Shown here: piece by piece, positions 2,412-59,434 of the stretch | How positions within the stretch are numbered: the stretch's first letter is position 1 | How the letters are laid out: each line of letters opens with the position of its first letter | DNA from: Minisyncoccota bacterium | GTDB lineage: Bacteria > Patescibacteriota > Minisyncoccia > UBA6257 > UBA9933 | Direction: 5' to 3' | DNA length: 64,000 nt | Assembly: GCA_041653755.1 (NCBI GenBank) | Contig: JBAZEU010000001.1 | Coordinates: forward strand, 129,398 to 193,397 | The notes under the pieces: generated by a model | The model's input: the letters and a program-made list of their open reading frames with translations, nothing else | What the model was told of the DNA's origin: nothing | The model's database searches: none | Program-made: the position numbers and the translations under genes

Positions 2412-3194
2412 ATGAGGAAGCTGATGATAGGATCAGTCGGGATGTTGTTGATTGTGGCTTTCTGTTTCTTTGGCATAACGGCCGAAGCATTAGATATTCA
2501 GGCCAGACCAGCGGCGGCAATAAGCCAAGCGAACATTCCTGATGCCTCAACGGTATTAGGAAGCGATCCATGGAGGGATCGTGCGGGTCGTATTCTTCCC
2601 GGAAGAACATCCTTTGTTCTCCAGAAAGAATTGATAGCTCGAACACAGGGCTTTAAGAGTAAAAAGTGGGTGACCGTTCGTTTTTGCCCTGGATACATTT
2701 TTGCGGTTCTGCCTGATACTGGCGAAGTTGATTATATTGTGCAATGCGGTAATCCTATCCGCGCAACGGATGGATCCAAAATCCGCATAATTCTTCAACA
2801 GTCAGAAGAACAGCCCGTGCAAAGAGAGTGCCTGGTTAGTCAGGTTGAAGCTGAACCGCAAGCTTATGCCCAACAATCCGTTCAACGACAGTCTGTTTAT
2901 CGGCAAGAATCGAAATTCGATCATTACAATAGATTGGTCGGTGATTCGCTTCTTACGGTTACCGGTTCGAATTTTCGACATGGCGATGACGATTTAGGAT
3001 GGTGGACTCTTGGAGGAGCGATCGTGAGTCGCATAATATCAACTTCAAGAGGACAGAAATATAATGGAGAGTCGTTGCTTGAGGATGGAATTCGCGGCGG
3101 GATAGGTTATGCAGCAAGTTCAGATTCTGAGGAGGATATAGTTTATATCAATTCAGATTCTGATGATGGCTCCGATGGAGACGGCGGAAACTAA
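2412..3194 (+). CDS. secreted hypothetical protein with acidic D/S-rich C-terminus
   Basis: AAGGAGG RBS and signal peptide; GC content visibly higher than neighbouring genes. Confidence 0.6.
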   Translation: MRKLMIGSVGMLLIVAFCFFGITAEALDIQARPAAAISQANIPDASTVLGSDPWRDRAGRILPGRTSFVLQKELIARTQGFKSKKWVTVRFCPGYIFAVLPDTGEVDYIVQCGNPIRATDGSKIRIILQQSEEQPVQRECLVSQVEAEPQAYAQQSVQRQSVYRQESKFDHYNRLVGDSLLTVTGSNFRHGDDDLGWWTLGGAIVSRIISTSRGQKYNGESLLEDGIRGGIGYAASSDSEEDIVYINSDSDDGSDGDGGN

Positions 3195-3215
3195 ATCGCA
3201 AGAGATAAATTTATT

Positions 3216-3247
3216 CCCCAGGGAAAATCAATTGATTTTCCCTGGGG
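3216..3247 (+). terminator. strong hairpin (probable terminator)
   Basis: 14-bp stem CCCCAGGGAAAATC/GATTTTCCCTGGGG; no T-run on the + strand. Confidence 0.4.
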
Positions 3248-3332
3248 GCACATTTCGAACGCTTTATTATAAATAGAACGCTCGAAACGCGCTAAATCGT
3301 AAGCGTCGTAATTAATTAAAAGAAAAAATAAA

Positions 3333-5408: not shown

Positions 5409-5435
5409 GATAAATAAAGGATTGATATGTAAAAA

Positions 5436-5466
5436 CCGTCCCGATTCTAATCGGGACGGTTTTTTG
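5436..5466 (+). terminator. intrinsic terminator
   Basis: Stem CCGTCCCGA...TCGGGACGG followed by T7. Confidence 0.7.
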
Positions 5467-29817: not shown

Positions 29818-30540
29818 GTGATTAACAAAAAATCGAAAAAACCCAAATACATTATTGGTATAGATGAGGTTGGTAGGGGACCGTTGGCCGGACCAGTTGT
29901 GGTAGCGGCTTTAGCGCTCCCACAAAATTCCTGCCTGTCCGGCAGGCAGGCAAAATTAAGAATTAAAAATGCAGAGTTGAGAACTACGGAAAAATCTAAA
30001 AATTCTGAATTCTTAATTCTGCATTCTAAATTAGCGAAGCTTAGGGACTCTAAAAAACTTTCACCGCAACAAAGAGAAAAATGGTTTGATTGGGTAAAAG
30101 AAAATAAAATTCTATACGCAGTTGCATCAGTTTCGCCAAGAATAATTGATAAAATTAATATATCGAACGCCGCAAACTTAGCAGCCCAAAACGCTCTCGA
30201 GCGTTTAATTAAGAATGCCGTGCCTGCCGGCAGGCAGGCAGAATTCAGAATTAAGAATTGTAAGGTTTTCCTTGACGGCGGACTGTATCTAAAAAGATTC
30301 AAGATTCAAGATCTAAGATGCAAGACAGTTATTCGGGGTGACGAAAAAATTCCAGCGATCTCTTTGGCTTCAATTGTTGCAAAAGTCACGCGTGATAAAA
30401 AAATGAAGGAATTTCATAAAAAATATCCTCGTTATGGTTTTGATAAGCATAAGGGCTATGGGACGAAATATCATATCAGAGCCATCAAAAGAAATGGTGT
30501 TTCAAAAATACATCGAAAAAGTTTTTTGAAAAACTTTTGA
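29818..30540 (+). CDS. rnhB: ribonuclease HII carrying two in-frame repeat-derived insertions
   Basis: GIDEVGRGPLAGPV...DSKKLS...KGDEKIPAISLASIVAKVTRD...YGFDKHKGYGTKYH; about 35 aa and about 12 aa of extra sequence at the repeat sites. Confidence 0.85.
   Translation: MINKKSKKPKYIIGIDEVGRGPLAGPVVVAALALPQNSCLSGRQAKLRIKNAELRTTEKSKNSEFLILHSKLAKLRDSKKLSPQQREKWFDWVKENKILYAVASVSPRIIDKINISNAANLAAQNALERLIKNAVPAGRQAEFRIKNCKVFLDGGLYLKRFKIQDLRCKTVIRGDEKIPAISLASIVAKVTRDKKMKEFHKKYPRYGFDKHKGYGTKYHIRAIKRNGVSKIHRKSFLKNF
29929..30040. repeat. MITE-like element: GC hairpin (CCTGCCTG-TCCGG-CAGGCAGG) plus inverted AGAATTA-heptad arrays, in-frame inside rnhB
   Basis: Left array AAAATTAAGAATTAAAAATGCAGAG and inverted right array CTGAATTCTTAATTCTGCATTCTAAATTAGC resemble the arrays flanking the 4HB gene at 59021/59399. 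Confidence 0.55.
30217..30262. repeat. second, solo copy of the GC palindrome (CCTGCCGGCAGG) plus heptad array (AGAATTCAGAATTAAGAATTG) inside rnhB
   Basis: Same composite architecture as 29929..30040, left half only. Confidence 0.5.
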
Positions 30541-37647: not shown

Positions 37648-37676
37648 TTGACAAAAAAGGAGAGGTGAAGTAGTAT
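37648..37676 (+). promoter_or_regulatory. promoter (TTGACA-17-TAGTAT)
   Basis: Consensus -35 with a 17-nt spacer, driving the short structured transcript below. Confidence 0.45.
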
Positions 37677-37682
37677 ATCTAT

Positions 37683-37789
37683 ATCCGTAGATAACAGGCA
37701 ACCATCCGCGCTATAGCGGGGCAAGTAAGTCCTGTCGAGGAAATACAATGAGTTAATTGTGTTTTGTGTCTGCGAGAGCAGACATTTTT
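37683..37789 (+). ncRNA. candidate small structured RNA or rplJL leader (unclassified)
   Basis: Promoter upstream; hairpins ATCTA-TATCCG-TAGAT and CCGC-GCTATA-GCGG; ACAGG...CCTGT enclosure; ends in terminator TGTCTGC-GAGA-GCAGACA plus T6 (37766-37789). Confidence 0.4.
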
Positions 37790-37802
37790 TATCCCTCACC
37801 CT
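37790..37802. repeat. left arm of perfect 13-bp inverted repeat ATCCCTCACCCTT
   Basis: Exact reverse complement of 38074..38086. Confidence 0.6.
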
Positions 37803-37816
37803 TTAAGAATAAGATT

Positions 37817-38074
37817 ATGTTTTTCGTTTATATATTGAGGTCAAGAAAAGATAATAGTTTTTATATAGGTTTTGCCCCAGAATTACGCAAAAGGTTGGAA
37901 AAACATAATCAAGGATTGGTGAGATCAACAAAAAACATCAGGCCAATGGAGCTAATATATTTTGAAGGATATAAATCAAAAACAGATGCTTTAATTCGTG
38001 AAAGAAGATTAAAACGTTTTACCAAAGGATTTGCGTCATTAAAAAGTCGTTTAGTAAATTCATTAAATTCTTGA
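37817..38074 (+). CDS. GIY-YIG nuclease family protein (YhbQ/UPF0213-like)
   Basis: MFFVYILRS..NSFYIGFAPELRKRLEKHNQG...RERRLKR; the track ORF starts at an upstream TTG (37757) that lies inside the preceding terminator, so an ATG start is preferred. Confidence 0.7.
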   Translation: MFFVYILRSRKDNSFYIGFAPELRKRLEKHNQGLVRSTKNIRPMELIYFEGYKSKTDALIRERRLKRFTKGFASLKSRLVNSLNS

Positions 38075-38086
38075 AGGGTGAGGGAT
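38074..38086. repeat. right arm of 13-bp inverted repeat AAGGGTGAGGGAT (overlaps rplJ RBS and ATG)
   Basis: Reverse complement of 37790..37802; AGGGTGAGGG serves as the SD for rplJ. Confidence 0.6.
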
Positions 38087-38594
38087 GAAGAGCAAACCAC
38101 AAAAACAAAAGGAAATGGATTCGGGAGAAAAGCTTTTGAAAGAAAGCGAGAATTTGATTTTCGTTAATTTTAGCGGAGCGACAATGGAGGATTTAAAGAG
38201 CTTAAGGGCGGACTTAAAAAAACAGAAGGATAGTTTTAAGGTTGTAAAGAAAAGATTATTGAAAATTGTTTTACAAAAACTTGGAGTTGATTTCGATCCG
38301 ACTCAATTTGATGCGCAAGTTGGGACTATTTTTGTAACCGATAAGGATATAGCTGTTGCAGCTAACGCGGTCCATAAATTATTTAAAGCAAAACAAAGAG
38401 CTAAGGCAGAATTTAATATTCTAGGCGGGTATGATATGGGAAATAAAGTTTTTATTGACGAGTCAAGAATGAAATTGATCGGACAATTACCGGCAAAAGA
38501 AGTTGTATTGGCACAGGTGTTGGGAATGATCGCATCGCCGATACAGTCAATGTTATATATATTAAATGAAAGGTCGAAACAGACGAAATCCTAA
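38085..38594 (+). CDS. rplJ: 50S ribosomal protein L10
   Basis: L10-like N-terminus (IFVNFSGATMEDLKSLRADLKK...FKVVKKRLL) and position directly upstream of rplL. Confidence 0.8.
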   Translation: MKSKPQKQKEMDSGEKLLKESENLIFVNFSGATMEDLKSLRADLKKQKDSFKVVKKRLLKIVLQKLGVDFDPTQFDAQVGTIFVTDKDIAVAANAVHKLFKAKQRAKAEFNILGGYDMGNKVFIDESRMKLIGQLPAKEVVLAQVLGMIASPIQSMLYILNERSKQTKS

Positions 38595-38709
38595 TTTCTA
38601 AGCTCTAATTTCTAAACAAATTCAAATTATCAAAATCCAAAGAGTTTAGAATTTAGTTATTTAGACATTGTTTAGGATTTAGGTATTAGGATTTAGAATT
38701 TCAAAATAT
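38595..38709 (+). repeat. 115-bp TAGGATTT-rich intergenic element (rplJ-rplL spacer)
   Basis: Both ends closely match the reverse complement of 52762..52876 (TAATTTCTAAGCTCTAATTTCTAAA; TGTTTAGGATTTAGGTATTAGGATTTAGAATTT). Confidence 0.5.
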
Positions 38710-39075
38710 ATGGATAAATTACAAGATATTATTTCAAAAATAGAAACATTAACCACTGTGGAGTTGGCTGACTTAGTAAAAGCAATGGAAGAGAAATTTG
38801 GTATTTCCGCCGCCGCTCCAGTCGCAGCTGCAGCCGCAGGTGGCGCAGCAGCCGCAGAAGAAAAAACTTCTTTCAATGTTATTTTGAAAGCAGCCGGTGA
38901 GCAAAAAATAAATGTTATTAAGGCTGTGAAAGAAATTACCGGTCTTGGTTTGAAAGAAGCTAAAGACTTAGTTGACGGCGCTCCAAAGCCGATCAAAGAA
39001 GGAGTCAAGAAAGAAGAAGCGGATGAAATGAAAAAGAAATTGGAATTAGTTGGTGCGGTAGTAGAATTAGGGTAA
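38710..39075 (+). CDS. rplL: 50S ribosomal protein L7/L12
   Basis: Ala-rich hinge [19 protein letters not shown] and C-terminal domain ([20 protein letters not shown]). Confidence 0.9.
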
Positions 39076-39104: not shown

Positions 39105-39179
39105 GGGCGGTTAGTTTAATGGTAAAACATTGCATTCACATTGCAGAGAGCATAGGTCCGATTCCTATACCGCCCACCA
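39105..39179 (+). tRNA. probable tRNA-Val (anticodon CAC), atypical T-loop
   Basis: Acceptor GGGCGGT/ACCGCCC, D-stem GTTT/AAAC, anticodon stem TTGCA/TGCAG with loop TTCACAT. T-loop reads TCCGATT (C at position 55), hence uncertain. Confidence 0.5.
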
Positions 39180-59020: not shown

Positions 59021-59056
59021 GGTTAATTAAGAATTAAGAATGCAGAATTAAGAAAG
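59021..59056. repeat. left terminal array of AGAATTA heptads (TAATTA-AGAATTA-AGAATGC-AGAATTA-AGAAAG) preceded by hairpin TTAACC-TGTAG-GGTTAA
   Basis: Inverted partner at 59399..59434. Confidence 0.55.
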
Positions 59057-59059
59057 ATT

Positions 59060-59401
59060 ATGGAAAAGGAAATTTATAAAAGATCCTGCGATTTTGCTAT
59101 TTCAGTGATAAGATTTTTGAAGAAAATTAACATAGATTCGGCAAATAGGGTAATAGCAGAGCAGCTAATTAGATCAATAACTTCAATATCGGCTAATCTT
59201 GCAGAAGGAAGCGCAGCTGTTTCTAAGAAAGAATTTATTAACTATGTCGGTATCGCAAGAAAATCGGCGGTGGAAACAGTGCATTGGCTGAAATTTTCGC
59301 ATCAAATTATTAATAGGGAAGAGATCAAGGAATTTATAAACGAAGGTAGTCAGATAGTAAGCATTTTATCAAAAATAGTTATTAATTCTAAAAACCGCTA
59401 A
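59060..59401 (+). CDS. four-helix-bundle protein (TIGR02436; 23S rRNA intervening-sequence protein family)
   Basis: ISANLAEGS...KEFINYVGIARKSAVETVHWL signature. Confidence 0.7.
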   Translation: MEKEIYKRSCDFAISVIRFLKKINIDSANRVIAEQLIRSITSISANLAEGSAAVSKKEFINYVGIARKSAVETVHWLKFSHQIINREEIKEFINEGSQIVSILSKIVINSKNR

Positions 59402-59434
59402 TTCTGAATTCTTAATTTTGAATTCTTAATTAGC
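59399..59434. repeat. right terminal inverted heptad array (TAATTCTGAATTCTTAATTTTGAATTCTTAATTAGC) followed by hairpin AGCAAAAT-TAT-ATTTTGCT
   Basis: Reverse complement is GCTAATTA-AGAATTC-AAAATTA-AGAATTC-AGAATTA. Confidence 0.55.

Follow-up and report, generated by a model that had tools for sequence, protein, structure and literature searches.

A hairpin-bounded GIY-YIG nuclease cassette, probably mobile, between the L10 leader and rplJ in a patescibacterial genome

In the 64-kb stretch of DNA analysed here (the window), a small gene for a GIY-YIG nuclease lies between the leader of a ribosomal protein operon and its first gene, rplJ, and is enclosed by an inverted repeat whose right arm runs into the rplJ start codon. 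The question raised by this locus is whether the repeat marks the ends of an inserted element or a regulatory hairpin of the host, both of which had been offered as readings by the original prediction. The comparisons below favor a 294-nt cassette, probably selfish and mobile, which has been inserted between the U-tract of the L10-leader attenuator and the start of rplJ (probability roughly 0.8). Mobility is deduced from the distribution of the element, and no movement has been observed. The features of the locus, all on the forward strand, are as follows.

37648..37676 (+), promoter-like TTGACA-17-TAGTAT of the rplJL unit (10/12 consensus matches; the TTGACA and the -10 region are kept in aligned relatives)
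37667..37798 (+), ribosomal protein L10 leader (RF00557-like) including its 3' terminator (Rfam match, conserved core, orthologs)
37766..37790 (+), attenuator/terminator hairpin GTGTCTGC-GAGA-GCAGACAT followed by a T run (terminator scan; kept in the minimum-free-energy fold)
37791..37810 (+), left arm ATCCCTCACCCTTTAAGAAT (pairing with the right arm)
37792..38085 (+), inserted cassette TCCC...GGGA, 294 nt (absent at empty sites; same ends in two-armed elements elsewhere)
37813..37825 (+), start-codon stem, 5' half, GAUUAUGUUUUUC, over the nuclease start codon (perfect 13-bp complement of 37898-37910)
37817..38074 (+), gene for the 85-aa single-domain GIY-YIG nuclease, stop codon included (PF01541)
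37898..37910 (+), start-codon stem, 3' half, GAAAAACAUAAUC, codons E28-Q32 (pairing, fold)
38067..38086 (+), right arm ATTCTTGAAGGGTGAGGGAT (pairing with the left arm; family-wide arm comparison)
38085..38594 (+), rplJ, ribosomal protein L10, 169 aa (PF00466, E=8e-13)
38710..39075 (+), rplL, L7/L12, 121 aa (PF00542 and PF16320)

The rplJ site, filled and empty

The L10 leader in the window covers the full RF00557 model with 28.8 bits (E=0.0097), which is below the gathering score of 44; an Rfam search of the whole window at the gathering threshold returned tRNAs only, and the leader surfaced in a focused search by E-value. Orthologous leaders fall on both sides of this score, with L002 (52.5 bits) and L008 (46 bits) above it and L005 (37.0) and L009 (36.3) below it, and the core UCCGUAGA...CCGAGGAAAU is conserved in the alignment of relatives. 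The region 37667-37798 therefore resembles the Rfam L10 leader in having the conserved core and a terminator upstream of rplJL, but differs in that a 294-nt cassette stands between the leader and rplJ.

Orthologous rplJ sites can be filled (the window, L009, L157, L158, and L159) or empty (L008, L010, L002, and L005). Five orthologous leaders that lack the nuclease gene carry neither arm and no Shine-Dalgarno (SD) sequence, and the L10 leader and terminator are retained in the four named. In L008 and L010, whose L10 is 85% identical to that of the window, the attenuator/terminator hairpin adjoins the ATG directly and the sequence reads ...GTGTCTGCGGAAGCAGACATTTTTATTACC-ATG. The insert boundaries drawn from the empty sites agree with the outer arm ends to ∼4 nt, and the filled rplJ site misses 5–6 nt (TTACC) of the empty site. 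The original prediction had named GIY-YIG copies without such repeats, together with orthologous leaders that already contain both arms without the GIY-YIG gene, as the sign of a regulatory hairpin; the comparison of rplJ upstream regions gave the reverse, with relatives that have no GIY-YIG gene having no arms either. Because the empty sites are without arms and arms are found family-wide, the arms are the ends of the 294-nt insert, and the alignments show 37792-38085 to be an insertion.

The cassette is also present in L009, whose L10 is 96% identical, and a lookup of contigs with identical L10 or identical nuclease found every contig with identical L10 to be filled and no polymorphic empty allele among either group. 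No further nuclease copy, arm core, or miniature was detected in the rest of the 64-kb window by tblastn and k-mer search, and since the window holds a single copy and all identical-L10 contigs are filled, the cassette may be fixed and inactive in the source species. A more distant trace occurs in L131 (L10 66% identical, rplJ DNA 70%), where a 27-nt stretch from the cassette 3' end (38058-38084) is found before rplJ with 27/27 identity, but with no ORF and no left arm; the segment is a remnant of the cassette.

The inverted repeat and the nuclease

The sequences ATCCCTCACCCTT (37791-37803) and AAGGGTGAGGGAT (38074-38086) are exact reverse complements and occur once each in the 64-kb window. 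The original prediction had correctly described a real and exact repeat with this right arm, but it placed the left arm at 37790-37802 and made the arms too short. They reach 20 nt (37791-37810 and 38067-38086) with T(37804)·G(38073) as the sole mismatch, or alternatively 23 nt with 91% complementarity (37788-37810 and 38067-38089), and in L091, whose nuclease is 87% identical, a C at the position of T37804 results in a perfect 20-bp repeat. As had been stated, the arms enclose a single ORF (85 aa, 37817-38074) and the final bases of the right arm run into the L10 start codon. This arm contains the nuclease stop codon TGA (38072-38074), the SD-like GGUGA (38077-38081), and, as its final two bases, the A and T of the rplJ ATG (38085-38087).

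Taken alone, the 13-bp repeat is not significant in the window, where six perfect 13-bp inverted repeats with arms 50–400 nt apart occur; Markov-simulated windows average 1.8 of them (maximum 9). Its significance derives from conservation across homologs and not from window statistics: a flanking inverted repeat scoring at least 10 (median 17) is found at 67/82 homologous GIY-YIG genes, as against 2/246 shuffled controls. The arms of the homologs have a median length of 20 nt and a spacing of 245–277 nt, and their inner halves vary from locus to locus yet remain complementary, with 1053/1075 positions forming Watson-Crick pairs. A second pairing, between the nuclease start region and nt ∼81–95 of the ORF, is found in 27/73 homologs versus 8/219 shuffles, with changes on both sides.

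The 85-aa protein matches PF01541 with 58.9 bits (cut-off 22.6, E=6e-16) and consists of the catalytic domain only, without an extended DNA-binding region. The catalytic residues are conserved, with no variation at Y16, I17, G18, R26, and E62 across 35 sequences and almost none at Y5 and H30, and a dN/dS of 0.09–0.17, in a comparison that leaves out the misaligned L011 and L009, shows the nuclease sequences to be under purifying selection. The AlphaFold model (pLDDT 94) has its best structural matches in UPF0213 BH0048 (1zg2, the top match) and Slx1 (TM 0.62, rmsd 2.7 Å), and the I-TevI and UvrC domains match too; a profile built from the homolog alignment ranks BH0048 (1zg2, E=9e-10) and EF2693 (1ywl, E=7e-8) ahead of Slx1. 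The YhbQ/UPF0213 label given to the gene from its translation is therefore reasonable, BH0048 and EF2693 being the top profile matches and 1zg2 the top fold match. The designation SLX1/UPF0213-like is a statement of proximity and not a curated assignment, and an NCBIfam search with the nuclease gave no family-level match.

Nuclease homologs with 64–87% identity are named in Wolfe-, Niyogi-, Colwell-, and Sungbacteria, and L10 identity falls to 46% or less from the eleventh match on. High nuclease identity where L10 identity is low suggests horizontal spread of the nuclease and was counted in favor of a mobile cassette. A scan of IMG/VR viral contigs found no relative of the nuclease and thus no sign of a phage vector.

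Related elements and alternative readings

A metagenome scan with the right arm recovered 48 two-armed elements, which fall into size classes of 287–294 nt (14 full elements), 250 nt (4 decayed), ∼204–209 nt (7), 120–141 nt (22), and 62 nt (1). The elements found elsewhere share the ends TCCC...GGGA, and at protein-coding genes they extend exactly from a stop codon to the next start codon (TAA/TCCC...GGGA/TG); the 48 precede 33 different N-termini, and the stop codon abuts TCCC directly in 28/48. The ORF-less two-armed miniatures (n=30, 62–209 nt) carry near-identical arms before about 20 other genes, and one and the same 124-nt ORF-less element precedes three different genes (L096, L132, and L136). 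Nuclease relatives at 75–87% identity precede unrelated genes; for example, the L091 nuclease (87%) stands before an unrelated gene and the L092 nuclease (80%) before an RNase_H_2 gene, and the genes downstream of homologous cassettes include def, a GTPase, parA, T2SS-E, T2SS-F, mraY, and plsX. The ORF also occurs within LSU rRNA (5 loci), SSU rRNA (2 loci), and RNase P RNA, in P3 at 8 loci (the right arm being followed by AGGAAAGUCC) and in P9 in L065, and tRNA genes begin 0 to -4 nt from the right-arm end of adjoining cassettes. The RNase P RNA and rRNA sites are peripheral helices closed by the ∼20-bp arms, whereas the window copy lies in an mRNA leader. With the caveat that metagenome contigs can be chimeric at repeats, these comparisons show a large family of hairpin-bounded GIY-YIG cassettes in Patescibacteria with the site types listed. 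The original reading of a mobile cassette between a leader/terminator and rplJ is thus borne out by empty sites without gene or arms and by armed homologs at many unrelated sites.

Direct repeats at the insertion sites vary, with none at TAA/../TG sites, 4–5 nt at ATGA-type sites, and 10–13 nt at tRNA genes. Since no uniform target-site duplication was found among the element sites examined and bases are missing at rplJ, the element fits poorly to a simple cut-and-paste transposase, although it is like IS/MITE-like transposons in having terminal inverted repeats at its boundaries and non-autonomous copies with the same ends. Terminal inverted repeats that form an RNA hairpin and many short non-autonomous copies near gene starts are also features of miniature inverted-repeat elements in transcribed regions beside genes, such as the Neisseria Correia elements, and of REP/RAYT, the latter with a single associated nuclease gene, RAYTs being HUH tyrosine transposases. 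To our knowledge, Correia elements duplicate TA and have no dedicated enzyme, and neither they nor REP/RAYT rebuild a downstream start codon or have been reported in RNase P RNA. The sole ORF of the element encodes a GIY-YIG nuclease, which belongs to no known transposase class, and we know of no GIY-YIG protein acting as a prokaryotic transposase.

The best surviving alternative to a mobile cassette is that the arms act in RNA only, as those of an intervening sequence whose duplex is an RNase III substrate that excises the ORF from the host transcript, with spread by break repair (homing) or recombination and not via the ends; we consider this possible but doubtful. It would account for the constant ∼20-bp duplex, about two helical turns, for the occupation of peripheral helices of rRNA and RNase P RNA, and for the identical cassette 3' end at the same rplJ junction in two hosts 66% identical in L10. 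RNase III-excised 23S rRNA intervening sequences similarly have a long stem closing the insert in a peripheral structural-RNA helix, RNase III excision being putative in the present case. On the other hand, ORF-less miniatures at dozens of unrelated junctions would require insertion without flanking homology, and the 85-aa protein is without the DNA-binding domain that gives homing endonucleases their site specificity. The homing enzymes I-TevI and Seg share the catalytic fold and the presence or absence at a defined site among related genomes, but they have a long DNA-binding domain and one cognate site reached via flanking homology, in contrast to a bare 85-aa catalytic domain at dozens of unrelated sites. 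In T4 endonuclease genes, the endonuclease start codon is sequestered in a stem, as it is in the window cassette by prediction. The arm mismatches across homologs are few in total (9 G·U, 8 A·C, and 5 other), and with G·U not in excess over A·C they give no sign of selection specific to RNA pairing. In support of the RNA-only reading, GIY-YIG ORFs have been described in CPR rRNA insertions that belong to neither the group I nor the group II introns and are spread across sites of low conservation (Tsurumaki et al. 2024, PMC11270868). Relatives of the window cassette also occur in SSU and LSU rRNA helices, whereas the GIY-YIG passages of that paper mention no flanking arms, non-rRNA sites, or miniatures (PMC11270868).

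The closest known system comprises the Ssn nucleases (cd10448). These ssDNA nucleases measure about 94 aa, consist of a single GIY-YIG domain, and are mostly encoded by genes with flanking hairpin repeats (Chenal et al. 2025, PMC11893778). As described in the relevant parts of that paper, NTS-ssnA-NTS is similar to the window cassette in its tiny single-domain GIY-YIG protein and in a gene bracketed by inverted-repeat DNA ending ATxCCC...GGGxAT-like (PMC11893778); in each system, many ORF-less repeat copies lie elsewhere, and for each a comparison with an IS or with REP-RAYT has been drawn. They differ in that a complete short hairpin (20–50 nt) stands on each side of the Ssn genes, whereas here the gene is the loop of one split hairpin; neither flank folds by itself (0 kcal/mol for the left-arm region alone, folded as DNA), and the complementarity runs between the two flanks. 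Among solved structures, the window protein is nearest to UPF0213/Slx1, Ssn having been compared by its published description, and the published degenerate SRM motif, used as a regular expression, has 0 matches on either strand of the window. By term search, "tRNA" and "Patescibacteria" are absent from the text of the Ssn paper, and its passages on Ssn, as consulted here, describe no positioning at start codons, tRNA 5' ends, or RNase P RNA and rRNA helices (PMC11893778). Literature searches on GIY-YIG genes in connection with inverted repeats, RNase P RNA, tRNA, or Patescibacteria turned up no description of the architecture.

A domesticated Ssn-like system, in which a sequence- or structure-specific ssDNA nuclease serves the host (e.g., by limiting incoming DNA), the arms are its recognition hairpin, and the unit no longer moves itself or never did, is unlikely. 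The hairpin repeats of most Ssn genes, likened to an insertion sequence (PMC11893778), the strong purifying selection on the nuclease, and the fixation of the cassette in all contigs of the source species are consistent with it. It is opposed by the absence of the SRM motif from the window, by one hairpin split around the gene instead of one per side, and by UPF0213 and Slx1 as the closest solved relatives; in addition, the decayed 250-nt copies, the 27-nt remnant, and the many ORF-less junction copies resemble a cycle of invasion and decay.

Far less probable still is a host regulatory hairpin, in which the left arm evolved as an anti-SD to sequester the rplJ ribosome-binding site (RBS) and tune L10/L12 synthesis, with the nuclease merely in the loop. 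RNA folding, which the original prediction had called for, gave a very strong predicted arm pairing (−38.2 kcal/mol; pair probabilities ∼1.0; region z-score −5.98) that buries the SD-like sequence and the AUG of rplJ immediately downstream of the L10-leader attenuator, with a predicted unpaired probability of 0.004 for the rplJ start. According to these models, the stem should occlude the rplJ start, and translation of rplJ is likely to be affected as a by-product. The empty orthologous rplJ leaders, however, carry neither arm nor SD, near-identical arms are found on miniatures before about 20 other genes, and similar arms occur beside tRNA genes and inside RNase P RNA and rRNA, which are sites without translation. 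An anti-SD pairing tied to terminator readthrough is therefore not upheld as the origin or purpose of the repeat, there being no RBS at those RNA sites. The proposal that the right arm supplies the rplJ RBS is plausible, as GGUGA lies 3 nt from the AUG, but weak, because SD motifs show no enrichment in the source genome and rplJ at the empty sites has no SD. The notion that the G-rich right arm owes its existence to a role as RBS was rejected, as the same core flanks RNA genes in a genome without SD enrichment. A chance inverted repeat, to which the six such repeats in the window against 1.8 expected might point, has a negligible probability and is ruled out by the counts of 67/82 homologs versus 2/246 shuffles and by the absence of the repeat from the empty sites.

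A proposed mechanism and its meaning

Under the preferred reading of a mobile cassette, the nuclease gene occupies the loop that a 20-bp terminal inverted repeat closes off, and a selfish element, now or formerly mobile, would depend on host transcription, which at this locus would start at the rplJ promoter and be subject to L10-leader attenuation. The arms would make the insert tolerable to the host by sealing it off in an RNA helix, and the outer end of the right arm would restore the downstream start codon and supply the GGUGA 3 nt upstream. The nuclease ORF ends within the right arm, 10 nt ahead of the rplJ AUG, and because its stop codon falls there, a terminating ribosome could free the rplJ start; alternatively, RNase III cleavage of the ∼20-bp duplex would expose it. 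The second stem, over the nuclease start codon, may keep translation of the nuclease low. At the DNA level, by analogy with Ssn and its flanking hairpins, the nuclease probably recognizes the arm hairpin or cruciform and mobilizes both full and miniature elements.

A bolder and tentative proposal, which we hold to be possible and no better than that, is that these elements represent a novel class of mobile element in prokaryotes, with a bare SLX1/UPF0213-like GIY-YIG nuclease as sole protein. The enzyme would recognize the DNA hairpin formed by the ends of the element and mobilize the ∼290-nt cassette together with ORF-less miniatures, with survival restricted to sites where the RNA stem renders the insertion harmless. 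Such sites would be stop/start junctions, where the start codon is rebuilt and translational coupling restored, the 5' ends of tRNA genes, and helices in RNase P RNA and rRNA. If this proposal is true, the rplJ copy would be a nuclease gene placed under ribosomal-protein autoregulation.

If the reading of the family is true, many of the small genes annotated as "GIY-YIG nuclease family protein" in Patescibacteria would belong to one hairpin-bounded family with miniatures, and the non-intron GIY-YIG insertions in patescibacterial rRNA genes would fall in the same family. The loci described here show protein-coding genes lodged within RNase P RNA (P3/P9), and elements placed to the base from stop to start codon with the start codon rebuilt offer a tidy solution for genomes with almost no intergenic space. 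Together with the work on Ssn, hairpin-reading single-domain GIY-YIG enzymes may represent a mobility engine, and they are of interest as small structure- or sequence-specific nucleases. At the rplJ locus, an essential and autoregulated ribosomal-protein operon carries a 25-bp predicted stem over its first start codon, so that translational coupling or RNA processing could be put to the test there.

The cassette in front of rplJ

The window comes from a low-GC (37%) bacterium, a member of Candidatus Paceibacterota by the source name attached to the identical nuclease protein, and carries the following features around the 5' end of rplJ.

37648-37676: predicted promoter TTGACA-17-TAGTAT, upstream of the cassette
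37766-37790: terminator hairpin and T run, upstream of the cassette
37791-37803, + strand: left 13-mer ATCCCTCACCCTT, with its exact reverse complement at 38074-38086
37817-38074: 85-aa nuclease ORF, the sole ORF between the arms (GIY-YIG domain PF01541, E=6e-16)
38072-38074: nuclease stop codon, within the right arm
38085-38594: rplJ, directly 3' of the arms and followed by rplL

The original prediction described a perfect 13-bp inverted repeat bracketing nothing but the GIY-YIG ORF, and its content, exact complementarity and right arm (38074-38086) agree with the present analysis; the left arm lies one base further right, and the repeat is longer, with full arms of 20 nt (37791-37810 / 38067-38086) that contain a single T·G mismatch and remain 91% complementary when taken to 23 nt. 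The right arm ends two bases into rplJ, after the AT of the ATG start codon, and ATCCCTCACCCTT and its reverse complement each occur once in the window. Perfect 13-bp inverted repeats with arms 50-400 nt apart number six in the window vs ~1.8 expected, so the 13-bp repeat is unremarkable by itself and the case depends on comparison with relatives. Two perfect 16+16-nt palindromes in the window, at 3216-3247 (CCCCAGGGAAAATCAA/TTGATTTTCCCTGGGG) and 5431-5464 (AAAAACCGTCCCGATT..AATCGGGACGGTTTTT), are possible terminators.

An upstream leader and terminator had been called correctly, given the promoter, the terminator, a match between them to the L10 leader RF00557 that spans the whole model yet scores below threshold (28.8 bits, E=0.0097), and orthologous leaders that align with it and reach the gathering score in the relatives' rplJ loci L002 (52.5 bits) and L008 (46 bits). 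Relatives' rplJ loci were retrieved by exact-protein look-up, and the comparison of upstream regions proposed at the outset found leader and terminator kept at empty sites, from which the gene and both arms are absent. The same cassette is present in L009 (L10 96% identical by BLAST) and in three contigs with identical L10. In L008 and L010 (L10 85% global identity) leader and terminator match those of the window but lead into ...ACATTTTTATTACC-ATG, with neither the nuclease gene nor either arm upstream of rplJ. Two more empty sites are those of L002 (70%) and L005 (67%), where 10-16 nt separate the U-tract of the terminator from an rplJ ATG that lacks an SD. Alignment of empty and filled sites places the insert at about 37792-38085, with the arms as its ends, and the junction is imperfect, as the filled site lacks 5-6 bases (TTACC) that the empty one has. 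A further locus, L131 (L10 only 66% identical, rplJ DNA 70%), has the leader, the terminator and then only the cassette's last 27 nt before the rplJ ATG; this segment (oriented, about 3040-3120) is identical to window 38058-38084 at 27/27 positions, which identifies it as a cassette remnant whose right arm was left behind as the rplJ 5' end. A tRNA gene lies directly 3' of rplL in the window (39105-39176) and in L002:4163-4236, L005:3931-4002 and L008:1578-1649, and in all four rplJL is unlinked to rplKA or rpoB.

Arms, insertion sites and miniatures of the family

The nuclease consists of the catalytic domain alone, conserves the motif Tyr residues, Arg26 and Glu62, and has a dN/dS of 0.09-0.17 vs four relatives. 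Its structure model is confident (pLDDT 94), and sequence profile and fold agree in ranking UPF0213 proteins and Slx1, a structure-specific nuclease, as closest, ahead of I-TevI and UvrC. One genome per GTDB species was scanned with an alignment of nuclease homologues, which gave 80 loci, and the 70 nt before each start were compared with the region around the stop for a complementary pair scoring at least 10, with shuffled controls. Such arms occur in 67 of 82 homologous genes vs 2 of 246 shuffles (median score 17), are 20 nt long at the median and lie 245-277 nt apart. Their outer core is G/C-rich (CCCTCACCC, CCCCCACC, CCCCGCAC and similar), and the inner halves vary by locus yet stay complementary (e.g., TTCAAGCAT, TTAGGACAT, TTCGCGCAT). 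Pairing is Watson-Crick at 1053 of 1075 arm positions, and the mismatches (9 G·U, 8 A·C, 5 other) give no sign of pairing selected only in sense RNA. On these sequence comparisons, the arms are a family trait of the nuclease homologues. At L013:61-170, same-type arms (CCCCTCACTCTT / AAGAGTGAGGGG) enclose a tRNA gene (81-152) and not a nuclease ORF.

In about two dozen loci the end of the right arm forms part of a long ORF's start codon (...GGGA|TG), and at protein-gene sites the left arm often directly follows the upstream gene's stop codon (TAA|TCCC). The downstream genes are mutually unrelated, including peptide deformylase, translational GTPase, ParA, T2SS-E, T2SS-F, MraY, and PlsX. At five loci, and at a sixth whose arms are weaker, the right arm abuts the start of a tRNA gene (offset 0 to -4 nt), and a direct copy of nt 1-11/13 of the downstream tRNA (its first 10-13 nt) lies left of the left arm in L034, L040, L047, L060, and L068. 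The P4 strand, AGGAAAGUCC, comes immediately after the right arm at eight RNase P RNA loci, which puts the arms in the position of P3; such genes with a GIY-YIG ORF occur in several Patescibacteria.

L035, L048, L057, L059, L061, L070, L073, L074 (about 2960-3280 in most): GIY-YIG ORF in P3 of RNase P RNA
L065:2976-3272: 291-nt insert in the P9 hairpin, full-length RNase P class A match

In L061, about 160 nt further downstream, there is another hairpin with the same core but without an ORF. The ORF is also found within LSU rRNA (five loci) and SSU rRNA (two loci), in line with the non-intron GIY-YIG insertions that PMC11270868 notes in CPR rRNA genes. Direct repeats of 4-5 nt (ATGAA, ATGGA) flank ATGA-type gene junctions and none were found at TAA|..|TG sites, so that, with the 10-13-nt copies at tRNA sites, target duplication is not uniform; a constant duplication was sought at the insertion sites and not found.

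L10 identity is ≤46% from the eleventh match on, vs 64-87% for nuclease homologues, whose source names span several Paceibacteria-group candidate phyla. The closest nuclease outside the window's species (L091, 87%) has perfect arms and precedes a different gene, and an 80%-identical one (L092) precedes an RNase_H_2-domain gene. A search of viral contigs for nuclease relatives found none. Upstream of the 87%-identical gene in L091, the left arm and 12 nt of upstream flank are duplicated (451-487 and 621-657, 170 nt apart), with a spacer rich in ATCCGAAT/ATTCGGAT and TACGAAT words. A/T-rich word repeats (TTAGGATT, AATTCTTAA, TAAGAAT) also build imperfect inverted or tandem arrays in the window's intergenic spacers at 38586-38694, 29950-30260, and 59024-59432; L072 (~1000) and L091 (490-620) contain words of a similar kind.

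When metagenome contigs were searched for exact matches to the right arm plus ATG, 64 loci were returned, 48 of which have both arms: 14 full-length elements (287-294 nt), 4 of 250 nt with a 42-nt internal loss, and ORF-less elements of 204-209 nt (7), 120-141 nt (22), and 62 nt (one). The proteins encoded directly after the two-armed elements have 33 different N-termini, and their genes include rplU, rpmI, rpsH and dnaA-like, ksgA-like, and xerC-like genes; a stop codon directly adjoins TCCC in 28/48, and one 124-nt miniature is shared by three different gene fronts (L096, L132, L136). The original prediction's first reading, a mobile cassette between leader/terminator and rplJ, is supported: the insert is a hairpin-bounded nuclease cassette inserted at the leader/rplJ junction, and its family comprises miniatures and many precise insertion sites. 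In L021:2846-3270, an ORF-less 130-nt miniature is nested between a full cassette's left arm and the start codon. L120 and L140 (also L130 and L142) share a left flank and a 250-nt decayed element with two different downstream genes, either because copies of the element recombined or because the assemblies are chimeric at the repeat.

RNA folding and rplJ translation

The alternative first offered for the same repeat was long-range anti-SD pairing coupling rplJL translation to terminator readthrough. The proposed RNA fold, run on 37683-38130, does pair the arms, in a predicted 25-bp stem (37786-37810 / 38067-38091) that holds the ORF in its loop, with the terminator hairpin retained (region z-score -5.98), with a predicted arm duplex of -38.2 kcal/mol, pair probabilities of about 1, and an unpaired probability of 0.004 for the rplJ start region. 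SD-like motifs precede 9 of the window's 49 ORFs of at least 150 aa vs 15% at random positions; this lack of enrichment, with the SD-less rplJ at relatives' empty sites, suggests that initiation in this lineage is mostly A/T-rich and SD-independent. The anti-SD device is not supported. GGUGA 3 nt 5' of the rplJ AUG may help initiation, as predicted for the right arm, but a ribosome-binding site was rejected as the reason for its G-richness, since the 49 long ORFs show no enrichment of such motifs. A second stem pairs the nuclease start-codon region (37813-37825) with 37898-37910 (its own codons 28-32) over a perfect 13 bp; 27/73 homologues vs 8/219 shuffles have an equivalent pairing in which both sides have changed, so the stem is probably a conserved translational brake on the nuclease.

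Proposed mechanism and known systems

The mobile cassette would ride on rplJ transcription, which would place it under L10-leader attenuation, and its arms may make it tolerable by isolating the insert as one helix. Translation of rplJ would then need the arm stem to open, either by a ribosome that terminates on the nuclease stop codon, 10 nt before rplJ, or by an RNase III cut in the ~20-bp duplex, and the latter would also explain why rRNA and RNase P RNA tolerate such inserts. In DNA, the element ends probably form a hairpin that the Slx1-like nuclease recognises, by analogy with the Ssn nucleases and their flanking hairpins (PMC11893778). Ssn/SRM is the nearest described system and shares the tiny enzyme and the inverted-repeat association, but flanks the gene with a complete hairpin on either side, whereas here the hairpin is split around it; the SRM motif has no match in the window. 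Homing endonucleases resemble the cassette in nuclease fold and in their presence/absence pattern, yet carry DNA-binding domains and have one cognate site; intervening sequences and MITEs (e.g., Correia elements) share the RNA-hairpin logic. Full-text literature searches returned no account of a split-hairpin architecture around such a nuclease gene, of insertions that rebuild a start codon, or of RNase P RNA carrying nuclease genes. That the family forms a distinct class of nuclease-driven transposon is a tentative and rather doubtful proposal. The rplJ cassette opens onto a widespread element family, which makes the finding more interesting than it first looked.
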